A stretch of 24,840 nucleotides of DNA from the UHGV virus genome UHGV-0183909. One strand, given 5' to 3'. The stretch comes from a virus. Position 1 is the stretch's first letter. The number at the start of each line of letters is the position of its first letter. The notes beneath the pieces are model-generated. The model saw only the letters and a program-made list of their open reading frames with translations. It was not told the origin of the DNA and did not search any database. Below, in pieces: positions 7,256 to 24,741 of this stretch. A program made the position numbers and the translations under genes.

Positions 7256-7939
7256 TTATCCAAACTCTATCATTTTAAGAGGTAAGCACCTGATAAGCTT
7301 GCCGAAAATGTATACTTCATTCATTTCATGTTCTTCTATGAAGAACGGCGGATAGTGCTCATTGTCTGATAGGACTGCCAGACGACGACCTTTAACTTTT
7401 TGTAGTCGTTTTACAAAGGTGCTGTCCTCGAAGTTGAACACGTAAACGCCATCGCCGCTAAATTGCTCCACCTTACTATCAATGAAGAGCAGATCCTTAG
7501 GGCACAACGTTGGCATCATACTGTCGCCATCAACGTTGATCATAACGATACCATCCAAGCTTCTCCGGCCAAACAATTCGAAAATCCTTTCTTCTGGTAT
7601 TTCTATCGAGCTGACAATCGTTGGGAACGGTTGATTGATATATCCCGAACCGGCTGACGCATGCACATCCAATTGCTGAATTCTAACCGTCCCGGTAGCA
7701 GGCGCATCACCGCCATTAACGGGTACCCCGTAATCAAGATAAGCAGGGGATACGGCAAGCCTGTCTGCAATTCGAATCATCTTTTCATCTCTTGGTTTTG
7801 CAGTACCAAGAGTATAGCGTCGCGCCATCTCATATGAGACACCACTGAACTCTGACAATTCTTTAACTCCAATTGATTGCTCTTGGAGAGACTTGTTTAG
7901 CCTGTCGGCAAAGTCTTTGTATTTAGCATTTTCCACCAT
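7256..7939 (-). CDS. CI-like prophage repressor (N-terminal HTH, C-terminal LexA/S24-like autoproteolysis domain)
   Basis: HTH-like segment SIGVKELSEFSGVSYEMARRY. C-terminal S24-like features: AGSG before a predicted cleavage region, VDGDSMMP (catalytic Ser motif), VFNFEDSTFVKRL (Lys region). Start could instead be the upstream in-frame ATG at 7975 if the transcript is leaderless. Confidence 0.85.
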   Translation of the reverse strand: MVENAKYKDFADRLNKSLQEQSIGVKELSEFSGVSYEMARRYTLGTAKPRDEKMIRIADRLAVSPAYLDYGVPVNGGDAPATGTVRIQQLDVHASAGSGYINQPFPTIVSSIEIPEERIFELFGRRSLDGIVMINVDGDSMMPTLCPKDLLFIDSKVEQFSGDGVYVFNFEDSTFVKRLQKVKGRRLAVLSDNEHYPPFFIEEHEMNEVYIFGKLIRCLPLKMIEFG

Positions 7940-7987
7940 AAGTAGAAGATTAAGCGCACAAGGCATAGTTGTCATTTCTATTTTAAG

Positions 7988-8865: not shown

Positions 8866-9204
8866 ATGAACAGTGTAAACCGATTCAGACCAGTTAAGCA
8901 ATTCAGATGCCCACCGCTGGTGGGGCGTGATGCCCCGTTCGGCTATGTGGGAATAGTACGTACAGCGAACGGAAGCCACAACTACCAGTGTGGTTCAGAG
9001 ATGGTAGAGGCGTTTACTCAGATGAATGAGAAGGGGCGTGAGGAGTGGCTGAAGTTGACCGGCGATTCAGAGACCACCGTGGAATCGAAGTCAGGGTTAT
9101 CCGTTGGGAGCCCGAGACCGGACGCGTTATATACCTTCGCCAAGGGTACGATCATGAGTGCTTCAGCCCTCTTGAACAATTCCAGCGTAAGTTTACAGAG
9201 TTAA
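8866..9204 (+). CDS. Hypothetical protein
   Basis: 112-aa ORF between the cII-like and replication genes; no recognisable domain and weak RBS. Confidence 0.4.
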   Translation: MNSVNRFRPVKQFRCPPLVGRDAPFGYVGIVRTANGSHNYQCGSEMVEAFTQMNEKGREEWLKLTGDSETTVESKSGLSVGSPRPDALYTFAKGTIMSASALLNNSSVSLQS

Positions 9205-9213
9205 AGGACGACC

Positions 9214-10098
9214 ATGAGCACTAAATTAACCGGTTACGTTTGGGACGCTTGCGCTTCTTCAGGCATGAAGTTGTCCAGCGTTGCCATCATGGCGCGTCTG
9301 GCAGACTTCAGCAGCGATGAGGGAGTTAGCTGGCCTTCAATTGGCACTATTGCTCGTCAGATTGGCGCTGGTGAAAGCACTGTACGCACAGCGATATCCC
9401 AACTGGAGAAGGATGGCTGGCTTACTCGTAAACAGCGCCGCAATGGCAACCGTAACGCCTCAAACGTGTATCAACTGAATGTCGCGAAGCTTCGTGATGC
9501 AGCTTTCTCTCACCTGTCAGATTCTGACGCATCAAAATCTGATGCATCAAAATCCGACCCGTCAAAATTTGAGGCATCAAAAAACGACGATAACGGCACT
9601 TTTGACCCGTCAGAATCTGGTGGGGATCCGTCAGTAAAATCAAAACCAGAACCATCAGTTAAAAATAAAACCCCTTGTCCGGTTCCTTCGAAACCTGACG
9701 ACGTCGATTCTGATCCTGCTGTTCAGGTTCTTGACCATTTCAACCAGGTCACCGGGTCTGAATACGGTCGTGGTGGTCGTAACAAAACCACGCTGGGATA
9801 CATCCGTGGTCGTCTCGCTGAAGATTACACCGCTGATGATTTGAAACTGGTGGTGGATTATCTCAACGCCAAGTGGGCAGACGATTCGAAGATGAGTGAC
9901 TACCTGCGCCCTAAAACGCTTTTCGGCGCGGAAAATTGCACGGAGTACTTCGAGAAGGCCAAGAAGTGGCGAAAGAGCGGTAGCCCGAAATGTGTCAACG
10001 GGCGCTGGGTCAAAGAGTCTGATCCGGTCCCTGTTACTCGTGAATCCTACGATAACGTTGATTACGCACTGCCTGAGAACGCGGGGTTCCGCCAATGA
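9214..10098 (+). CDS. Replication initiation protein (lambda O-like / DnaD-like: N-terminal winged helix, conserved phage C-terminal domain)
   Basis: 294-aa ORF. N-terminal HTH-like region (SWPSIGTIARQIGAGESTVRTAISQLEKDGWL) and C-terminal region (LGYIRGRLAEDYTADDLKLVVDYLNAKWADD) typical of phage replisome organisers. Origin-like iterons lie in the linker. Confidence 0.8.
   Translation: MSTKLTGYVWDACASSGMKLSSVAIMARLADFSSDEGVSWPSIGTIARQIGAGESTVRTAISQLEKDGWLTRKQRRNGNRNASNVYQLNVAKLRDAAFSHLSDSDASKSDASKSDPSKFEASKNDDNGTFDPSESGGDPSVKSKPEPSVKNKTPCPVPSKPDDVDSDPAVQVLDHFNQVTGSEYGRGGRNKTTLGYIRGRLAEDYTADDLKLVVDYLNAKWADDSKMSDYLRPKTLFGAENCTEYFEKAKKWRKSGSPKCVNGRWVKESDPVPVTRESYDNVDYALPENAGFRQ
9526..9672 (+). 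repeat. Candidate replication origin: four contiguous 15-bp iterons plus three degenerate copies, then an A-rich tract, inside the O-like gene
   Basis: GACGCATCAAAATCT / GATGCATCAAAATCC / GACCCGTCAAAATTT / GAGGCATCAAAAAAC in tandem at 9526-9585; further copies GACCCGTCAGAATCT, GATCCGTCAGTAAAATC, ACCATCAGTTAAAAAT; then GTTAAAAATAAAACC. Confidence 0.6.
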
Positions 10099-10568
10099 GC
10101 ATGCTGAAAGAAGTTCAGGCCTTCCTTGCCAAAAATCCTGGGTCCGGAAGTGCGGAGATTGTGGAGGCGTTCAGCCAGTACAGCGCACGAAGTATTCAAC
10201 GCACAGTGTGCCGACTTTATGACCTGAACCGTGCTACTCGTGAAACCGTTGGTAACCGCTTTGTCTACTCAGCTGATATGCCACTGGATATGGCGAAAGG
10301 GTGCGCTTCTCCTGCAAAAGTCGTTGTTCAACAAATGCCACGACAGGTAGTTACTCATCTCATCGAAAAAGCCGATCACCTTATGAGTCGTGGACTTTAT
10401 CGCCGCGCTGCCACGATGTTCATGGAAGCGTTCGAAGGGGCTGTTCATACCGAAGAGCGAGACTATTGCTTACGCCAGCGTCAGCGCTGCCTAAAGAAAT
10501 GCGCAGTGGACAAAAAGCGGCAGGAGGAATGGTGTCTTGCCGGGAAGTTTTGTGGAGGTGACATGTGA
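10095..10568 (+). CDS. PerC-like putative transcriptional regulator, in the position usually held by a helicase loader
   Basis: Start overlaps the O-like stop (ATGA). Motif SRGLYRRAATMFMEAF resembles the conserved GLWRRAA core of PerC-family activators as I recall it. Confidence 0.55.
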   Translation: MSMLKEVQAFLAKNPGSGSAEIVEAFSQYSARSIQRTVCRLYDLNRATRETVGNRFVYSADMPLDMAKGCASPAKVVVQQMPRQVVTHLIEKADHLMSRGLYRRAATMFMEAFEGAVHTEERDYCLRQRQRCLKKCAVDKKRQEEWCLAGKFCGGDM

Positions 10569-11233
10569 ACTACGAGCTGATTTACGCCGATCCTCCATGG
10601 TCATACGACAACACAGCCAGCAACGGTGCAGCAGAAAACCATTATGGAACGATGAAGCTCATCGACATTAAACGCCTTCCAGTGTGGGAGCTTTCTGCTG
10701 AAAACGCCGTGTTGGCCATGTGGTACACCGGGACGCATACCCGCGAGGCTATAGAGCTGGCGGAAGCATGGGGATTCAAGGTCCGCACGATGAAGGGCTT
10801 CACCTGGGTCAAGTTCAATCCGCTCGCGGAGAAGCACATCAACAAAGCGCTGCAGGCTGGGGGTGTGGAGGACTTTTACGATTTCCTCGACCTGTTGAAC
10901 GTCCAGACCAGGATGAACGGCGGCAACCACACCCGAGCCAATACAGAAGACCTGTTGATCGCCACAAAAGGGAAGGGGTTAGAGCGCCTGAACGCCGGTA
11001 TTAAGCAGGTTGTTTACAGCCCACTCGGTGTACACAGCCAAAAGCCCTGGGAAGTTCGCCACCGCTTAGAGCTACTTTACGGTGATGTATCGCGCATTGA
11101 ATTATTCAGCCGCAACGGTTCGCCAGGCTGGGACCACTGGGGCAATGAAGCGGAAAACCCTTCGGTGTTTATGGCTCCTGGTTATGTCTGTCCGGTTGAT
11201 ATGCAGGATGAGGTGACCAATGCCGGGTATTGA
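10565..11233 (+). CDS. MT-A70 family DNA N6-adenine methyltransferase (orphan, no adjacent restriction enzyme)
   Basis: GTG start overlapping the upstream stop. LIYADPPWSY contains the DPPW catalytic motif near the N-terminus, typical of MT-A70-type enzymes. Confidence 0.85.
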   Translation: MNYELIYADPPWSYDNTASNGAAENHYGTMKLIDIKRLPVWELSAENAVLAMWYTGTHTREAIELAEAWGFKVRTMKGFTWVKFNPLAEKHINKALQAGGVEDFYDFLDLLNVQTRMNGGNHTRANTEDLLIATKGKGLERLNAGIKQVVYSPLGVHSQKPWEVRHRLELLYGDVSRIELFSRNGSPGWDHWGNEAENPSVFMAPGYVCPVDMQDEVTNAGY

Positions 11234-11438
11234 AGAGCGTAACCTCCTGAAGAACATTGCCCGGAAAGTGAATGATGAAATCAGAGCAGAGCGGAAAGCC
11301 AGGCCCAATGAAAGCCCTGACTCGATATCGAGAAGGATCATGAACCGAGAAATGCCGATGGTTAAGTTGATGGGTTTTATGCCGTCCCATCTCTACTTCG
11401 AGATCGGTGTGCTCAATGGCAAATGTAAGGAGCGGTGA
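11220..11438 (+). CDS. Hypothetical small basic protein
   Basis: 72-aa ORF; its start overlaps the methyltransferase 3' end. Confidence 0.5.
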   Translation: MPGIEERNLLKNIARKVNDEIRAERKARPNESPDSISRRIMNREMPMVKLMGFMPSHLYFEIGVLNGKCKER

Positions 11439-11439
11439 G

Positions 11440-11760
11440 ATGGAACAGTTAACAATGCGTCAGGAAGAAGTACTTGGGATTATCGAAAACTACCAGCAGC
11501 GTATGGGGTTTCCGCCAACCGTCTACGAGCTGGCAAATCTGATGGGCTGCACATCCGGCAATGCGGCGGCGATTCAAATCAAGGCTCTGGAGAAGAAGGG
11601 CTATATCTCTGTCGCTCGCGGCGCAGCCAGGGGGATCACCATTCTGCGGGAGAGTCAGGAGCCTGATGCTGTAAGCATCGTTCGGGCGCTGCTGGTGGGC
11701 GATGCTGACGCGCGTCAGAAAGCAGTCTCCTGGCTGGAATCAAAAGGGGTAACGATTTGA
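11440..11760 (+). CDS. LexA N-terminal DNA-binding-domain-like protein lacking the S24 peptidase domain
   Basis: AAGGAG RBS 8 nt upstream of the ATG. LTMRQEEVLGIIENYQQRMGFPPTVYELANLMGCTSGNAAAIQIKALEKKGYISVARGAARGITIL aligns by eye with the LexA winged-helix DBD (LTARQQEV...[32 protein letters not shown]...SRGIRLL). Only about 40 residues follow and there is no Ser-Lys dyad region. Confidence 0.7.
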   Translation: MEQLTMRQEEVLGIIENYQQRMGFPPTVYELANLMGCTSGNAAAIQIKALEKKGYISVARGAARGITILRESQEPDAVSIVRALLVGDADARQKAVSWLESKGVTI

Positions 11761-14043: not shown

Positions 14044-14055
14044 GTGGAGAACGCT

Positions 14056-14889
14056 ATGAACCTTGAAGCCCTACCAAAATTTTATTCACCAAAATCGCCA
14101 AAGTTGAGTGATGACGCGCCAGCAACCAGCAATGATGCATTGTCTGTGACTGATGTGATGGCTGCACAGGGGATGACACAGAACCGCGCATCATTTGGCT
14201 TTTCTGCGTTCCTGGGGAAGTTGGGGATCAGCATCACTGAAAAAGAAAAGGCTATCGCGCTTCTTTCTAATTATGCCCTTGCTCGCTGCGACAGAGTCCC
14301 GGCGCTTCGAAAATTGAGCGCTGAAATCAAGCCAAAAGTAATTCGCATTCTCGCTGTTTATGCATTCGAGGATTATTCTCGAAGTGCAAGCACTACACGA
14401 ATCTGTGACTGCTGTAATGGTGAAGGGTTTATTGATGCCGAAGTCTTCAGCATGAAAACCCACACACCAGGCAAGAATAAAGAATTTGTCAAAATGTCAC
14501 TGCATATGGGCGTAAAAGATATCAAGCCATCAGCATATGAGGTGCGCAGACAAGTGAGAGAAATAAACCGCGTTCTGTGCCATCAGTGCAAAGGGAAGAA
14601 AGTAGTTAGTTCCTCATGCAACGATTGCCATGGTCGCGGTAAGGCCGTAAACCGCGAATTAACTGCAAAGCAGGGAGTACCGGTATTCACCGACTGTAAA
14701 CGATGCGGTGGTAATGGCTATGCAAGAATGCCGTCAACGGAAGCACTGGAAGCAATACGCCTTGTTACTGATGCCATTTCTCTCGATACATGGAAAAAGT
14801 CTGTGAAGAAGTTCTATGACGATCTCATTGAAAAGTTCGAAGTAGAAGAGGCATGGGCTGAAGAGCAATTGCGGCGGGTAACAAAATAA
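14056..14889 (+). CDS. Late-gene antitermination protein Q (lambdoid Q family with zinc-binding Cys clusters)
   Basis: GGAGAA RBS then ATG at 14056. Cys clusters CDCCNGEG, CHQCKGKK, CNDCHGRGK, CKRCGGNG. Last gene before the tandem terminators and the lysis cassette. Confidence 0.75.
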   Translation: MNLEALPKFYSPKSPKLSDDAPATSNDALSVTDVMAAQGMTQNRASFGFSAFLGKLGISITEKEKAIALLSNYALARCDRVPALRKLSAEIKPKVIRILAVYAFEDYSRSASTTRICDCCNGEGFIDAEVFSMKTHTPGKNKEFVKMSLHMGVKDIKPSAYEVRRQVREINRVLCHQCKGKKVVSSSCNDCHGRGKAVNRELTAKQGVPVFTDCKRCGGNGYARMPSTEALEAIRLVTDAISLDTWKKSVKKFYDDLIEKFEVEEAWAEEQLRRVTK

Positions 14890-18100: not shown

Positions 18101-19564
18101 ATGCACATGCAGGTCACAATAGATGGTGTCCCGTATGCACCTGTCAATAATTCACACTCAGCGGTAGGGATCGCCATAACTACGCATAACAGACCTGATG
18201 TTCTTAAGCGTGCCATCGAGCAGCACATGAAGCATCTTCCGTCCGGTGCGCTGGTGGTCGTCATCGACGATGGCTCAAAGCCTCCCGCTGTTGTACCGGC
18301 TAATGTAAAACTGGTTCGTCATGACCAATCATGCGGTATTGTCGCTTCGAAGAACGCCAGCCTGACCGCACTGGTGGATGCCGGGTGTGAGCATCTCTTC
18401 CTATGGGATGATGACGCGTGGCCCATCGCCGATAACTGGCATCTTCCCTACATCGAATCTCCCGAGCCGCACCTGGCTTACCAGTTTCTCGATCTTGCTG
18501 GGCCGAGAAAGCTTAATGATATGGCCGTGCTGTACCGGGATGATAAGCACATCGCTTACACCGGACAACGCGGTGTGATGCTGTATTACCACCGCAGCGC
18601 TATTGAGAAGGTTGGCGGTTTCGATCCGGTTTATGGTCGCGGCATGTACGAGCATCCAGATCTGGCGCTACGCATTCACAATGCCGGTTTATCGACCTGG
18701 GCGTTCGCTGATGTGGTCGGATCTGAAAAACTGATTCATTCAATGGATGAGCACGAAGAGGGTACGCGCTCAATTCCACGACCTGACCGAGAGGCGCTGG
18801 TAAAAAGAAACGTTGGCATATTCAATGCTCGCCGTGACAGCGGTTATACAGGCTTTTCCTCTTATAGCAGAAATCCAAATCTGGTGATTACGACGCTACT
18901 CACAAGCCAGCCAGACCCACAGCGCGGCGGAAAGATGAAACCCGACCCGCAGGTTCTGCAATCATGGGCTGACTCAATATCCGGCGCACTACCAATTGTC
19001 TTGGCTGACGAATTGAAAGAGTCGCCAACTGGTGCTGGTTTAAGTGAAGTCCCGCTGGTGGACATGAGCCCATACTTTGCTCGCTGGCTTCACATCTATC
19101 AGTTTCTACGTGCGCACCCTGAGTATCACCTTGTCTGGTGCACTGATGGTACTGACGTTGAAATGTTGCGAGAGCCCTGGGCAGAAATGCAGTCGGGTAA
19201 AATTTACGTTGGCTCAGAGCACAAGACGTATTCCGACGAATGGATGAAAGCAAATCACCACGGCAAGGCGTATAGCGATTTCATCGAGCAACATCGCGAT
19301 GAACCACTGCTAAATGCTGGCTTGTTAGGTGGTAACCGTGAAGACGTTATGGAGTTCGCGCATCGTATCATTCGTCAGTATTACCTGATTGAAAGTCATC
19401 GCTTCTGGAAGATTGAAAGAGCGCCTGAAACGAAGGTTGATATGGGTGCATTCGGCATGGTGGCGAAGTCATTTGGAGACAAGGTTATTACCGGGCCCAA
19501 GGTTCACACCATCTTCAAGTCTGAAGGCGTTGGCAAGGAGTTGGCATGGTGGATGCACAAGTAA
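18101..19564 (+). CDS. Two-domain glycosyltransferase: N-terminal GT2 (GT-A fold), C-terminal domain of unclear family
   Basis: 487-aa ORF. GT2 hallmarks: GIAITTHNRPDVLKRAIE, VVVIDDGS, LWDDDAWP (DxD) and VGGFD. C-terminal half (LVITTLLTS..., WCTDGTDVEML) may be a second nucleotide-sugar transferase-like domain. Confidence 0.8.
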   Translation: MHMQVTIDGVPYAPVNNSHSAVGIAITTHNRPDVLKRAIEQHMKHLPSGALVVVIDDGSKPPAVVPANVKLVRHDQSCGIVASKNASLTALVDAGCEHLFLWDDDAWPIADNWHLPYIESPEPHLAYQFLDLAGPRKLNDMAVLYRDDKHIAYTGQRGVMLYYHRSAIEKVGGFDPVYGRGMYEHPDLALRIHNAGLSTWAFADVVGSEKLIHSMDEHEEGTRSIPRPDREALVKRNVGIFNARRDSGYTGFSSYSRNPNLVITTLLTSQPDPQRGGKMKPDPQVLQSWADSISGALPIVLADELKESPTGAGLSEVPLVDMSPYFARWLHIYQFLRAHPEYHLVWCTDGTDVEMLREPWAEMQSGKIYVGSEHKTYSDEWMKANHHGKAYSDFIEQHRDEPLLNAGLLGGNREDVMEFAHRIIRQYYLIESHRFWKIERAPETKVDMGAFGMVAKSFGDKVITGPKVHTIFKSEGVGKELAWWMHK

Positions 19565-22803: not shown

Positions 22804-24741
22804 ATGAAGCTTGACCGCGCATGTACCATCATGACGGTGAAAGCGGTGGATGAGGATAAACGGATTATCACCGGCATTGCCTCCACACCATCACCAGACC
22901 GTGACGGCGACATTATGGAGCCTGACGGCGCGAAGTTTGGCAGTGAAAACCCGTTTTTATGGCAGCACGACAGGTCTCAGCCCATCGGTAATTGCTCGGC
23001 GAAAAAGGTGAAAGAGGGGCTGCAAATTACAGCTCAACTTGTTAAGCCAACACCTGATATGCCATCGCAGCTGGTGGCCAGACTTGAAGAAGCGTGGGCA
23101 TCAATTAAGTCAGGACTTGTAAAAGGTCTGTCGATTGGTTTTAAGCCCATCAAATACGCTTATCTCGACTCTGGCGGCATTCAATTCCTCGAATGGGAGT
23201 TACTAGAAGTCTCTGCCGTAACCATTCCCGCTAATTCTGAGTGTTCAATTCAGACAGTTAAATCTTTTGACCGCCAGTTACTCGCCGCGCTTGGCAATGA
23301 GAAACGCGTGGTTAAAGCAAATCAATCCGCTGGCGCTACAGCACAAAAACAAACTTCTCAAAAAGGAAAACCAACGATGAATATCGCTGAACAGATCAAA
23401 AGTTTTGAAAACAAGCGTGCAGCGCTGGCCGCTTTACTGAATGACATCATGAGCAAAGCTGCTGATGAAGGTCGCACTCTGGATGTAGAAGAAACTGAAA
23501 GCTACGACAACACCTCTACGGAAATCAAATCGGTAGACGAACACCTGAAACGCCTTCGTGACATGGAAGCCAGCATGGCATCAACCGCGAAGCCGGTGAC
23601 CAAAACTGCAAACGGTGAAGTTACTGTGATTAATAACGGGCCGTCCATCATTCGCGTAGAGCCGAAACTGGAAAAAGGTATCGCTTTTGCCCGTTTCGCA
23701 AAGTCACTGGCCGCTGGTAACGGTAGCCGATCTGAAGCCCTGCAGATTGCGAAAAACCAGTATCCTGATGACACTAAACTTCATCATGTCCTGAAAGCGG
23801 CGGTTAGTGCCGGTACTACTACAGACCCGACCTGGGCTGGCGCACTGGTAGAATACCAGGATTACGCACAGGACTTCGTTGAATTCCTGCGTCCGCAGAC
23901 CATTATTGGTCGCTTTGGTCAGGGTAATATCCCTTCTCTTCGTCAGGTTCCATTCAACGTTCGTATTCCAGCGCAAACCTCAGGCGGTTCAGCAAGCTGG
24001 GTAGGTCAGGGTAAAGCAAAACCTCTGACTAAATTTGACTTTGCCACCATCACCTTCGGTTTCTCCAAAGTGGCATCTATCGCAGTGTTGACCGAAGAAC
24101 TGATCCGCTTCTCTAACCCATCTGCTGATGCTCTGGTGCGAAATGCACTGGCAGAAGCGGTGATCGCGCGACTGGATACAGACTTCATTGACCCTGCTAA
24201 AGCGGCGGTCGCTGATGTTTCTCCGGCATCTATCACCAATGGCATCACTGCTATTCCTTCTACCGGTGATCCTGATACTGATGCTTCTGCAGCATTTGGT
24301 CAGTTCATTACGAACAACCTGCAGCCGAATGGTGCGGTATGGCTGATGTCCAGCACTACGGCACTTACTCTGTCTATGCGTAAAAACGCGCTTGGTCAGA
24401 AAGAATACCCGGATATGACCATGCTGGGCGGTACGTTCCAGGGCTTGCCGGTGATCGTTTCACAGTACGTTGGCAACCAATTGGTACTGGTTAACGCACC
24501 AGATGTTTATCTGGCAGATGATGGTGGCGTCGCCGTTGATATGTCTCGCGAAGCTTCTCTGGAAATGCAGAGCGCTCCGACCCACGACAGCACAACGCCA
24601 ACTCCAGTTGAATTGGTTTCGATGTTCCAGACTAACAGCGTGGCAATTCGTGCTGAGCGCTGGATTAACTGGAAACGCCGCCGTGATGCAGCCGTAGCTG
24701 TTATTTCTGACGTTGATTACAGCACTGGTTCAACCAGCTAA
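22804..24741 (+). CDS. Fused prohead protease / scaffold-like linker / HK97-fold major capsid protein
   Basis: 645-aa ORF. N-terminal third carries HK97-type prohead protease motifs (IITGIASTPSPDRDGDIMEPDGAKF, NPFLWQHDRSQPIG). Middle is a charged coiled-coil-like linker. C-terminal ~400 aa resembles HK97-fold capsid proteins. In-frame internal ATG at 23377 has an AAAAGGA RBS. Confidence 0.8.
   Translation: MKLDRACTIMTVKAVDEDKRIITGIASTPSPDRDGDIMEPDGAKFGSENPFLWQHDRSQPIGNCSAKKVKEGLQITAQLVKPTPDMPSQLVARLEEAWASIKSGLVKGLSIGFKPIKYAYLDSGGIQFLEWELLEVSAVTIPANSECSIQTVKSFDRQLLAALGNEKRVVKANQSAGATAQKQTSQKGKPTMNIAEQIKSFENKRAALAALLNDIMSKAADEGRTLDVEETESYDNTSTEIKSVDEHLKRLRDMEASMASTAKPVTKTANGEVTVINNGPSIIRVEPKLEKGIAFARFAKSLAAGNGSRSEALQIAKNQYPDDTKLHHVLKAAVSAGTTTDPTWAGALVEYQDYAQDFVEFLRPQTIIGRFGQGNIPSLRQVPFNVRIPAQTSGGSASWVGQGKAKPLTKFDFATITFGFSKVASIAVLTEELIRFSNPSADALVRNALAEAVIARLDTDFIDPAKAAVADVSPASITNGITAIPSTGDPDTDASAAFGQFITNNLQPNGAVWLMSSTTALTLSMRKNALGQKEYPDMTMLGGTFQGLPVIVSQYVGNQLVLVNAPDVYLADDGGVAVDMSREASLEMQSAPTHDSTTPTPVELVSMFQTNSVAIRAERWINWKRRRDAAVAVISDVDYSTGSTS

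Follow-up and report, generated by a model that had tools for sequence, protein, structure and literature searches.

An O-only lambdoid replication module with a DnaT-like initiator tail and an optional PerC-like gene in an Escherichia coli prophage

Gene content of the replication region

The stretch of DNA analysed here, called the window below, is the whole 24,840 nucleotides (nt) of UHGV virus genome UHGV-0183909. The region in question is its replication module (positions 9214-10568), in which the gene for a replication initiator resembling the O protein of phage lambda is followed directly by the gene for a protein of 157 amino acids (aa). The original prediction for this region, made from the letters of the DNA, was that the O-like initiator is accompanied by neither a phage helicase loader nor a phage helicase, that a regulator resembling the PerC family sits in that slot, and that replication either recruits host DnaC through the C-terminal part of the initiator or uses the 157-aa protein as a divergent loader; a virulence regulator in an early operon was also considered. 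The features of the region are as follows, with positions counted along the window.

9214-10098, plus strand: O-like replication initiator, 294 aa (Pfam, PHROG)
9516-9657, within the initiator gene, between the regions encoding its two domains: putative origin (Tandem Repeats Finder, TRF, and repeat search)
10057-10095, plus strand: C-terminal tail of the initiator, VDYALPENAGFRQ, similar to the C-terminus of DnaT
10095-10568, plus strand: YfdN-type PerC-family protein, 157 aa (PHROG 1324 over the full length, Pfam PerC borderline)

The initiator gene and the gene for the 157-aa protein share an ATGA overlap at 10095-10098.

The initiator and a putative origin within its gene

Pfam analysis of the initiator identified an HTH_36 domain (aa 23-70, 35 bits) and a Phg_2220_C domain (aa 172-246, 63 bits), together with a weak match to DnaD_N. 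The protein also matched PHROGs 11896, 428 and 391, the annotations of which include 'replication initiation O-like' and 'primosomal protein'. Its layout consists of an N-terminal winged-helix domain, predicted to bind the origin, a linker encoded by repeats, and the C-terminal Phg_2220_C domain. The first half of the gene is 82% identical at the nt level to the O gene of phage LLS.

The repeats between the two domains include tandem iterons of 15 base pairs (bp), present in 4-5 copies at 9516-9582 with the consensus TCTGACGCATCAAAA (TRF: period 15, 4 copies, score 78), and related and inverted iteron copies at 9600-9657 (repeat families D1, D2, D4 and I2). An A/T-rich stretch follows the iterons at approximately 9634-9670, and no DnaA boxes were found near the putative origin. 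In its anatomy the 294-aa protein is an initiator of the lambda-O type, with a winged helix, iterons within its own gene and a C-terminal domain, and the iteron region probably acts as an origin.

A sequence search of the initiator against PDB chains returned nothing meaningful (MarR-type proteins at E 0.07, over the helix-turn-helix alone). A profile of the Phg_2220_C region gave neither a DnaD nor a DnaT match in the PDB, and a DnaD- or DnaT-like fold is therefore not claimed for this domain. The C-terminus of lambda O was treated as '_2220_C' on the basis of HHpred in an earlier study (Brezellec et al. 2017, PMC5509034).

Absence of a recognisable helicase, loader or primase

In the window, 32 open reading frames (ORFs) were scanned with Pfam and PHROG, comprising all of the long ones and several short ones, from the mtfA/integrase region through Q to the capsid gene. 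No match to DnaB, DnaC/IstB, P, a primase or a DnaD-type loader was detected among these 32 ORFs. As judged by homology, no gene between integrase and Q can be recognised as one for a helicase, a loader or a primase, and the predicted combination of an O-like initiator with no phage loader or helicase was confirmed to this extent. With absence assessed in the same way, the module classifies as an 'O-only' lambdoid replication module as defined by Zheng et al. 2025 (Zheng, Casjens, Davidson, Amundsen, Smith, Genome Res 2025, PMC12315714), who state that phage LLS possesses an O homologue and nothing further of this kind, as is the case for 34 of 314 lambdoid phages (~11%).

A DnaT-like tail at the C-terminus of O-only initiators

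The window initiator ends in ...SYDNVDYALPENAGFRQ, and the O-only initiators that were examined all share this type of tail (e.g., ...VDYSQIPAGFRG), with the pattern ...(S/K)(Y/F)xxVDY(S/A)x(I/L)P-x(1-3)-GFR(G/S/Q). The same tail type occurs across initiators with at least three different C-terminal domains, found upstream of YfdN-like genes and in the phages LLS, Flotzy and Klebsiella KpF5. These domains are Phg_2220_C, the SfV-type domain (FGPDRHFEE...), and a homologue of the lambda-O C-terminal domain (38% identity, E 2e-26). O of the KpF5 type combines a lambda-O-like C-terminal domain with the tail and has no accompanying P, whereas lambda O is accompanied by P and has no tail.

E. coli DnaT (primosomal protein I), a primosome adaptor encoded directly upstream of dnaC, ends in ...VSEPDSQIPPGFRG, with SEPDSQIPPGFRG at its extreme end, and SfV orf39 is identical to DnaT at 8 of 9 residues at the extreme C-terminus. 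When Phg_2220_C proteins were compared with DnaT by hhalign, the tail alone aligned, and homology of the window initiator to DnaT over a whole domain was rejected for this reason. Of 80 Enterobacteriaceae species, 79 have a conserved tail on DnaT, although DnaT overall is only 73-97% identical among them and the residues beside the tail vary.

The specificity of the tail was examined with the pattern [ILV]P-x(1-3)-GFR-x(0-3) at the protein end, termed class A, into which the window initiator falls. Among 5420 ORFs of at least 80 aa from approximately 2 Mb of fetched loci, the motif forms the end of 176, each of which is either DnaT or an initiator, and the core of the motif occurs 177 times anywhere in these ORFs. 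The tail motif is essentially confined, among these 5420 ORFs, to the C-termini of DnaT and of initiators. It was absent from 80 lambda-type loci, a negative set obtained by scanning viral contigs with an alignment of the lambda-O C-terminal domain, which returned lambda-identical loci only. The codons that specify the tail differ synonymously between initiator types, which points to selection on the tail peptide.

Tail types and loader classes

If the tail addresses the DnaC pathway, it is expected on initiators that precede E. coli-type DnaC genes and not on those found with other loaders. Eleven phages with DnaC-like genes were picked from a tblastn search with E. coli DnaC, and their loaders were classified by mutual identity.

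Class A: Gifsy-2, Klebsiella ST974-OXA48phi18.2, Kp4885-1, Aeromonas pAEv1818 and vB_EcoS-613R10; loaders 48-51% identical to E. coli DnaC; initiators ending in ...IPTGFRG, ...IPSGFRG, ...VPAGFRG, ...PPGFN or ...VNTVSLPDSAIPPGFRG
Class B: mEpX1, N7, RCIP0034 and Hafnia yong1; loaders 58-73% identical to one another and 31-35% to E. coli DnaC; initiators (fetched loci L182, 898-1743; L266, 752-1597; L267, 719-1573; L184, 964-1842) ending in ...KDYGQTE(M/I)PSWA..
Class C: P27 and Stx2_EH2201, with a helicase gene after each loader; loaders 96% identical to each other; initiators (fetched loci L183, 809-1735; L268, 627-1535) ending in ...SDKFGKSSDKLTF

The type of initiator tail fits the loader class without exception in the 11 phages, with 5/5 in class A, 4/4 in class B and 2/2 in class C, and the tail of 613R10 is nearly identical to that of DnaT (...VNTVSEPDSQIPPGFRG). 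The SfV-type central domain carries a class-A tail both in SfV, which has no loader, and in ST974, which has a class-A loader, and it carries a class-C tail in P27. The occurrence of the same central domain with differing tails indicates that the tail acts as an exchangeable module that fits the loader, and the comparison suggests a general tail-to-loader code in lambdoid initiators.

In some class-A phages, the similarity to DnaT extends beyond the tail. The C-terminal domain of DnaT (aa 85-179; dnaT at 2979-3518 of L094) is homologous to the C-terminal domains of the pAEv1818 initiator (44% identity over 100 aa, E 1e-19) and of the 613R10 initiator (E 1e-8), the two initiator genes being located at 1551-2468 of L181 and 1703-2491 of L179. 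The dnaC gene of Enterobacterales was reported to be a domesticated phage gene (PMC5109545). This phage origin of dnaC, taken together with the homology between the C-terminal domains of DnaT and the initiators, suggests that dnaT-dnaC descends from a phage initiator-loader pair, and the host genes look like such a pair, domesticated and without the origin-binding domain. A DnaT_C domain in a domesticated O-like protein was noted earlier (Brezellec et al. 2017, PMC5509034); no mention of the tail, or of a link between the tail and O-only phages, was found in that study or elsewhere in the literature. A scan of viral contigs for DnaC returned host dnaC only.

The 157-aa protein belongs to the YfdN family

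The motif GLYRRAATMFMEAF at aa 100-113 of the 157-aa protein lies within a match to Pfam PerC (PF06069; aa 92-137, 19.8 bits, E 9.7e-4), which falls short of the gathering cut-off of 22.6 bits. Among 31 aligned homologues, 29 match Pfam PerC at E<0.01 (best, 1e-9), and a 71%-identical relative, P0002, bears a precomputed PF06069 match. The PerC similarity is borderline for the 157-aa sequence itself and clear at the level of the family, and these profile matches identify the C-terminal domain as a homologue of PerC and the 157-aa protein as a divergent member. In agreement with this, PHROG 1324 ('transcriptional activator') was matched at E 9e-45, with aa 1-157 on positions 15-169 of the 172 profile positions. 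Profile and structure searches had been set beforehand as the check on this protein; the profile searches detected similarity to PerC, neither kind of search returned a loader family, and the PerC-like character of the ORF next to the initiator can be regarded as established at the family level.

The protein aligns from end to end with YfdN of E. coli K-12 and orf40 of SfV (32-36% identity), and a tblastn search of phage genomes identified full-length relatives of 33-36% identity in SfV (orf40), SfII, many Shiga toxin 2 (Stx2) phages, mEp460, Ayreon and Salmonella phages. Several of these are annotated as 'putative protein YfdN' or 'PerC family transcriptional regulator', and yfdN has already been called 'the K12 unique PerC homologue' (PMC5931665). 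An exhaustive HMMER search of 1.84 billion representatives found 58 relatives (cluster representatives), which indicates that the YfdN family is narrow. Two close relatives only (97% and 71% identity) were found among 5.8 billion proteins, and a second search for homologous proteins gave 20 relatives. The version of the gene found in the window was present in no complete E. coli genome, a scan of genome contigs with the single 157-aa protein as query gave no YfdN-family match, and a sequence search against PDB chains returned nothing relevant (a pentatricopeptide repeat protein at E 0.04).

In the alignment of 31 family members, a variable linker joins two conserved domains, an N-terminal one of approximately 55 residues and a C-terminal one bearing the motif A..L...GL.RRAA..W.EAF...ER..CL.RR..CL, and a conserved tail, W.LAG.F.G, follows. 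An AlphaFold2 model based on a 44-sequence alignment (mean predicted local distance difference test score, pLDDT, 80), which replaced a run with 3 sequences (pLDDT 61), predicted a winged helix of three helices and a beta hairpin at aa 1-60 (nt 10095-10274; pLDDT 84-91), a disordered variable linker at aa 61-82, and a three-helix PerC domain at aa 83-141 (nt 10341-10517), followed by the tail W.LAG.F.GG. In Foldseek searches of the PDB, the N-terminal domain resembled winged helices of the BlaI/MecI, ArsR/SmtB, MarR and Fur types at root-mean-square deviations of 1.3-2.6 Å; the PerC domain had no match, no loader was returned, and the BFVD library of viral structures added nothing. In the model, the 157-aa protein appears as a two-domain relative of PerC and Pch, with a winged helix joined to a PerC domain by a flexible linker.

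Quite probably, the 157-aa protein is an accessory DNA-binding regulator of the early operon with PerC as its effector domain. The suggestion that it might represent a virulence regulator has weakened, as the YfdN subtype also occurs in K-12 and no functional test of YfdN-type proteins was found in the papers searched, in which yfdN was only deleted from a reporter strain.

Several apparent domain fusions among the relatives (P0008, P0012, P0013, P0020, P0029 and P0030) are deletion or read-through products and were set aside as uninformative. An O-YfdN fusion in Salmonella phage 118970_sal3 (L002, 2960-4472) was likewise not taken as evidence; the O-like and YfdN-like frames are joined there in an open frame of 460 aa, with the PerC domain then split by a frameshift, and the fused frame is probably a sequencing or assembly error in the 77-kb record.

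Two further observations concern the domains of this family. Two long repeat proteins, P0047 (838 aa) and P0048 (679 aa), match the PerC region (aa 87-133) 7-8 times in tandem, with a repeat unit resembling ...NLNSEGDxLFNQGKYxEAHSKYHEAYDKS..., and from these repeats the PerC helix pair appears to resemble a unit of the tetratricopeptide repeat type. In phage vB_EcoS-613R10 (L179, 3216-4028), a 270-aa ORF that lies downstream of a truncated DnaC-like gene has at least two tandem winged helices like the N-terminal domain of YfdN (E 6e-6) and no PerC domain.

The PerC-like gene is optional

The phages LLS, Flotzy and KpF5, which form plaques and were derived from virions, carry close homologues of the window initiator; the genes of LLS and Flotzy are 82-83% identical to that of the window at the nt level, with the same HTH_36 and Phg_2220_C architecture. 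In LLS, Flotzy and KpF5, the O-like gene is followed directly by a gene for a methyltransferase or a PAPS reductase. No YfdN-like ORF was found in the complete genomes of Flotzy and KpF5 by a profile search of six-frame translations; no YfdN-like gene is annotated in the O region of LLS, and the authors who described LLS report no loader or helicase in that phage (PMC12315714). Because plaque-forming phages with the same type of initiator do without it, the PerC-like gene is presumably not needed for replication. It forms an optional insertion that separates O from the methyltransferase gene, at the start of a nin-like region, and is not a replacement of P. The description of the gene as sitting in the slot of a loader is accurate in that the gene adjoins the initiator gene, but it is misleading as to the gene order, which is of the SfV type.

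Among 80 IMG/VR loci with a YfdN-like gene, mostly near-identical E. coli prophages that represent few independent observations, 78 have an ORF of 122-330 aa immediately before this gene, usually with an ATGA overlap, and 70 of these 78 upstream ORFs are recognisably similar to the window initiator.

Proposed mechanism of helicase loading and alternative explanations

In the proposed mechanism, O bound to the iterons of the origin would melt the neighbouring A/T-rich DNA and would obtain host DnaB from the DnaB-DnaC complex of the host, which would make a phage loader unnecessary. The recruiting element would most likely be the extreme C-terminal tail of O (...VDYALPENAGFRQ), acting on DnaB-DnaC or on an adjacent step of the pathway. 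The 157-aa regulator would be translated together with O from the rightward early transcript, with its winged helix providing target recognition and its PerC domain an effector function (activation or anti-silencing). Origin function, a physical contact made by the tail and the identity of its partner are presumed in this scheme. We assign a probability of roughly 60% to the reading as a whole, that is, to an O-only module with an accessory 157-aa regulator and with a DnaT-like tail that recruits the host loading machinery. The earlier suggestion that host DnaC is recruited through the C-terminal part of the O-like protein has gained comparative support and a candidate element, since a DnaT-like tail co-varies with the loader class, and this tail would recruit host DnaC-DnaB. 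A more specific version, which we put forward tentatively and at somewhat less than even odds, is that the tail is a swappable 'address label' for the loader, that O-only phages such as that of the window, SfV and LLS capture host DnaC-DnaB by means of a DnaT-type tail (...IPxGFRG), that in replication restart the tail of DnaT mediates the hand-over to DnaB-DnaC, and that dnaT-dnaC is a domesticated phage initiator-loader pair.

Several points weigh against this interpretation. The loader is absent by homology alone, and several short early-left ORFs have no annotation of any kind. The co-variation between tail and loader was seen in a small sample (11 phages) selected from BLAST matches. The tail of the window initiator is a variant, with three residues between P and GFR and a terminal Q. 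No direct contact between DnaT and DnaC has been shown (PMC11087952), and the authors of preprimosome structures published in 2026 favour the N-terminal domain of DnaT as the recruiter of DnaB/DnaC, while its C-terminal domain docks on PriA (PMC13377028); an alternative partner of the tail could be PriA or other DnaT C-terminal domains. At many loci, including dnaT-dnaC, the final R-G codons (AGR GGN) also provide the gene coupled downstream with a Shine-Dalgarno sequence, and part of the conservation of the tail could be at the nt level; the window and KpF5 are free of this confounder, the codons at the end of GFR and beyond being CGC CAA or CGC TCA. Finally, every locus that has a YfdN-like gene shows it in close linkage with the 3' end of the gene for an O-only initiator, which fits a replication-related role as well.

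The docking of the DnaT C-terminal domain on PriA, which in the cryo-electron microscopy structures occurs through a conserved hydrophobic interface, raises the alternative that the tail recruits PriA or the PriA/PriB/DnaT preprimosome, and that DnaB is loaded by the replication-restart pathway, as in phiX174 and ColE1. The tail (IPPGF) is hydrophobic and conserved, DnaT has no demonstrated contact with DnaC, and phages of the LLS type rely on the recombination functions of the host (RecBCD and Chi), by which PriA-dependent restart is fed, a lifestyle that the window shares, with its 17 Chi sites and no Rec module. However, a match between tail and loader class in 11 of 11 phages is expected from a contact with the loader and not from one with PriA, which is the same host protein in the enterobacterial cases, and the text describing the structures does not name the tail in the PriA interface. 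Restart-type loading is considered unlikely, although it is a live rival. Smaller still is the chance that the shared tail is no protein-interaction motif at all and is kept as the ribosome-binding site of the coupled gene or as a recombination joint. This would account for the sequences AGG GGG TGA or AGA GGA TGA located 3-8 nt before the downstream start at most loci and at dnaT-dnaC, and the boundaries of lambdoid modules often lie at gene ends. Conservation nevertheless reaches 8-13 residues upstream of the Shine-Dalgarno-like codons (VDYSxIPxGF), with synonymous differences; the codons after GFR in the window and in KpF5 are not Shine-Dalgarno-like, classes B and C have distinct conserved tails of their own, and the tail is near-invariant in DnaT of 79 species in which the neighbouring residues are variable.

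As for the 157-aa protein, a role as a divergent loader of the helicase, or as an adaptor between O and host DnaB, functionally analogous to lambda P, would explain why the gene stands directly after O and is translationally coupled to it, an adjacency seen in 78 of the 80 IMG/VR loci and next to 70 recognisable initiators, and the module contains no other candidate. This part of the original prediction was not supported by the analysis. The 157-aa protein had no match to P (PF06992), DnaC/IstB (PF01695), DnaD/DnaB_2 or DciA in Pfam, PHROG or NCBIfam; the YfdN-family profile (A2) aligned to lambda P by hhalign with a probability of 0.09%; the predicted fold is a winged helix with a three-helix PerC domain and has no loader among its Foldseek matches; the gene forms part of an order conserved in SfV, Stx phages and Salmonella F1055; and LLS, Flotzy and KpF5, viable phages with an initiator of the same architecture, lack the gene. 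By this dispensability in relatives the loader is largely refuted, and we regard it as highly improbable. Another alternative is a non-essential modulator of replication in place of a general transcription factor, acting at or near the origin or on O (for example, by tuning initiation, by coupling transcription to activation of the origin or through a link to the methyltransferase). In its favour, the adjacency to the initiator gene and the 4-bp overlap are strict despite mosaic initiator domains upstream and differing methyltransferases downstream. The winged helix is predicted to bind DNA, and in this sample the YfdN-like gene was seen only with O-only initiators bearing class-A tails; the seven loci with O and a DnaC-like gene contained no full YfdN-like protein, one of them giving a weak match to the N-terminal winged helix only. 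On the other hand, the adjacency is explicable by descent of a single SfV-type module, most of the 80 loci being near-identical, the characterised members with a PerC domain act on the transcription of host genes (PMC6265319, PMC4764244), and no binding site was identified. A modulator of this kind is rather improbable in our estimate, and an accessory early DNA-binding regulator remains the preferred reading of the 157-aa protein.

Significance

O-only lambdoid modules are already known (PMC12315714), and YfdN-type PerC homologues are annotated in RefSeq and present in K-12; by sequence comparison, the gene in the window is a divergent new member of this known family. The optional nature of the PerC-like gene removes it as an answer to the question of helicase loading in O-only phages and tempers its reading as a virulence regulator. 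The rule that relates tail type to loader class is the part likely to surprise specialists, as far as a small comparative sample can indicate it. It touches two stated questions, namely the replication of O-only phages, which 'is not yet understood' (PMC12315714), and the recruitment of DnaB-DnaC by DnaT. If true, it would provide a simple sequence rule that predicts the host-factor dependence of temperate phages, including Stx phages.

Prophage setting and gene order

The first 1250 bases of the window are 99.6% identical to the mtfA/tRNA-Ser/tRNA-Asn region of E. coli, and the window is an E. coli prophage inserted beside mtfA/tRNA-Ser. The features outside the replication module are listed below.

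156-2241: mtfA/integrase region
1252-2241, minus strand: integrase
Between integrase and repressor: early-left operon of small ORFs
7256-7975, minus strand: cI-like repressor
Between repressor and 8866: Cro/YdaS-like gene, then CII (CP76) gene
8866-9204, plus strand: small gene, 112 aa, upstream of the initiator gene (PHROG 1170, E 1.6e-36)
10565-11233, plus strand: MT-A70-type DNA methyltransferase (Pfam MT-A70, E 1.2e-23; PHROG 359, E 1.5e-94)
After the methyltransferase, up to Q: LexA DNA-binding-domain protein, RusA, KilA-N protein, DUF968/HNH protein
14044-14889: Q
Beyond Q: lysis genes, terminase, protease-capsid fusion

Relatives of the small gene at 8866-9204 carry a DUF4222 annotation in RefSeq (E. 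coli matches), and a gene for approximately 110 aa occupies the equivalent position before O in LLS, Flotzy and KpF5, the likeness being one of size and position. The methyltransferase gene, which continues the conserved early-right operon of the SfV type, is translationally coupled to the PerC-like gene via a GTGA overlap, and a methyltransferase is encoded at the equivalent position in SfV, in the K-12 prophage CPS-53, in LLS and in KpF5. The gene order small gene, O, YfdN-like, methyltransferase, LexA DNA-binding domain, RusA, KilA-N, DUF968 and Q is common to SfV, Stx phages and Salmonella F1055. The cryptic prophage CPS-53 of E. coli K-12 matches this order with yfdO, yfdN and yfdM, of which yfdO is an O-like gene and yfdM a methyltransferase gene, both of them truncated.

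Seventeen Chi sites (GCTGGTGG) were found within 2292-23077, 16 of them on the plus strand, in comparison with 0.69 expected and a maximum of 5 in 100 shuffles. Homology scans detected no recombination (Rec) module in the early-left operon of the window.

Further observations were made on other genes of the prophage. The 117-aa protein encoded at 11407-11760 (plus strand) consists of a LexA DNA-binding domain alone (Pfam LexA_DNA_bind, E 3.5e-19), without an S24 peptidase; such a gene is kept at the same position in SfV (orf42) and in Stx phages, and from its domain content the protein could be a non-cleavable mimic of LexA. The 645-aa product of the capsid gene at 22804-24741 (plus strand) is a Peptidase_S78 prohead protease fused to a Phage_capsid domain. 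A 487-aa ORF at 18101-19564 (plus strand), between the lysis genes and the HNH/terminase genes, has a weak glycosyltransferase-2 match alone. In E. coli Z142-3 (NZ_CP159694.1; fetched locus L004, 4115-6389), a decayed prophage occupies the identical mtfA/tRNA-Ser site; its O-like gene is 97% identical to that of the window and is fused straight to a KilAC remnant, the genes for the PerC-like protein, methyltransferase, LexA DNA-binding-domain protein and RusA having been deleted.

Comparison with known systems

The closest counterparts of the 157-aa protein are K-12 YfdN, SfV orf40 and the PerC-family regulators of Stx phages and SfII, which likewise consist of a winged helix, a linker, a PerC domain and a LAGxxxG tail, and which are likewise encoded directly after an O-like gene and before a methyltransferase gene. 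The window protein forms a divergent branch with respect to YfdN and orf40, and its downstream methyltransferase is of the MT-A70 type, whereas that of SfV is of the Dam type. PerC of enteropathogenic E. coli (encoded on the pEAF plasmid) and PchA-E of enterohaemorrhagic E. coli share with the window protein the family motif of the C-terminal domain, A..L...GLYRRAA..W.EAF...ER..CL.RR..CL, and the pch genes, like the window gene, are borne by prophages (PMC6265319). PerC and Pch have a single domain (90 positions in the Pfam model; single-domain matches of 80-120 aa), in contrast to the 157 aa and the additional N-terminal winged helix of the window protein. Activation of the LEE (locus of enterocyte effacement) and ler was shown for PerC and PchA-C only, not for PchD/E.

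The O-only module of LLS resembles that of the window in its HTH_36 and Phg_2220_C initiator, in the gene of similar size that precedes it, and in having no P, helicase or Rec module, and both phages have abundant co-oriented Chi sites (16 of 17 on one strand in the window). In LLS, no PerC-like gene separates O from the methyltransferase gene; the window has a PerC-like gene there, together with the SfV-type genes for the LexA DNA-binding domain, RusA and KilA-N.

Lambda O, like the window initiator, has an iteron origin inside its gene between the N- and C-terminal domains, is encoded after cII in the early-right operon, and shows translational coupling to the next gene. The window differs from the lambda O-P system in having no P homologue, in the presence of Phg_2220_C in place of the lambda-O C-terminal domain, and in a DnaT-like tail, as compared with the lambda-O end ...TNTDWIYGVDL. 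DnaT and the initiators of Gifsy-2, 613R10, ST974-OXA48phi18.2, Kp4885-1 and pAEv1818 share the tail motif of the window initiator, [IL]P-x(1-3)-GFR-[GSQ]. Between the window initiator and DnaT, a tail of 13-14 residues alone can be aligned; the globular domain of the initiator is Phg_2220_C, no dnaC-like gene lies next to it, and DnaT, unlike the initiator, has no origin-binding domain.

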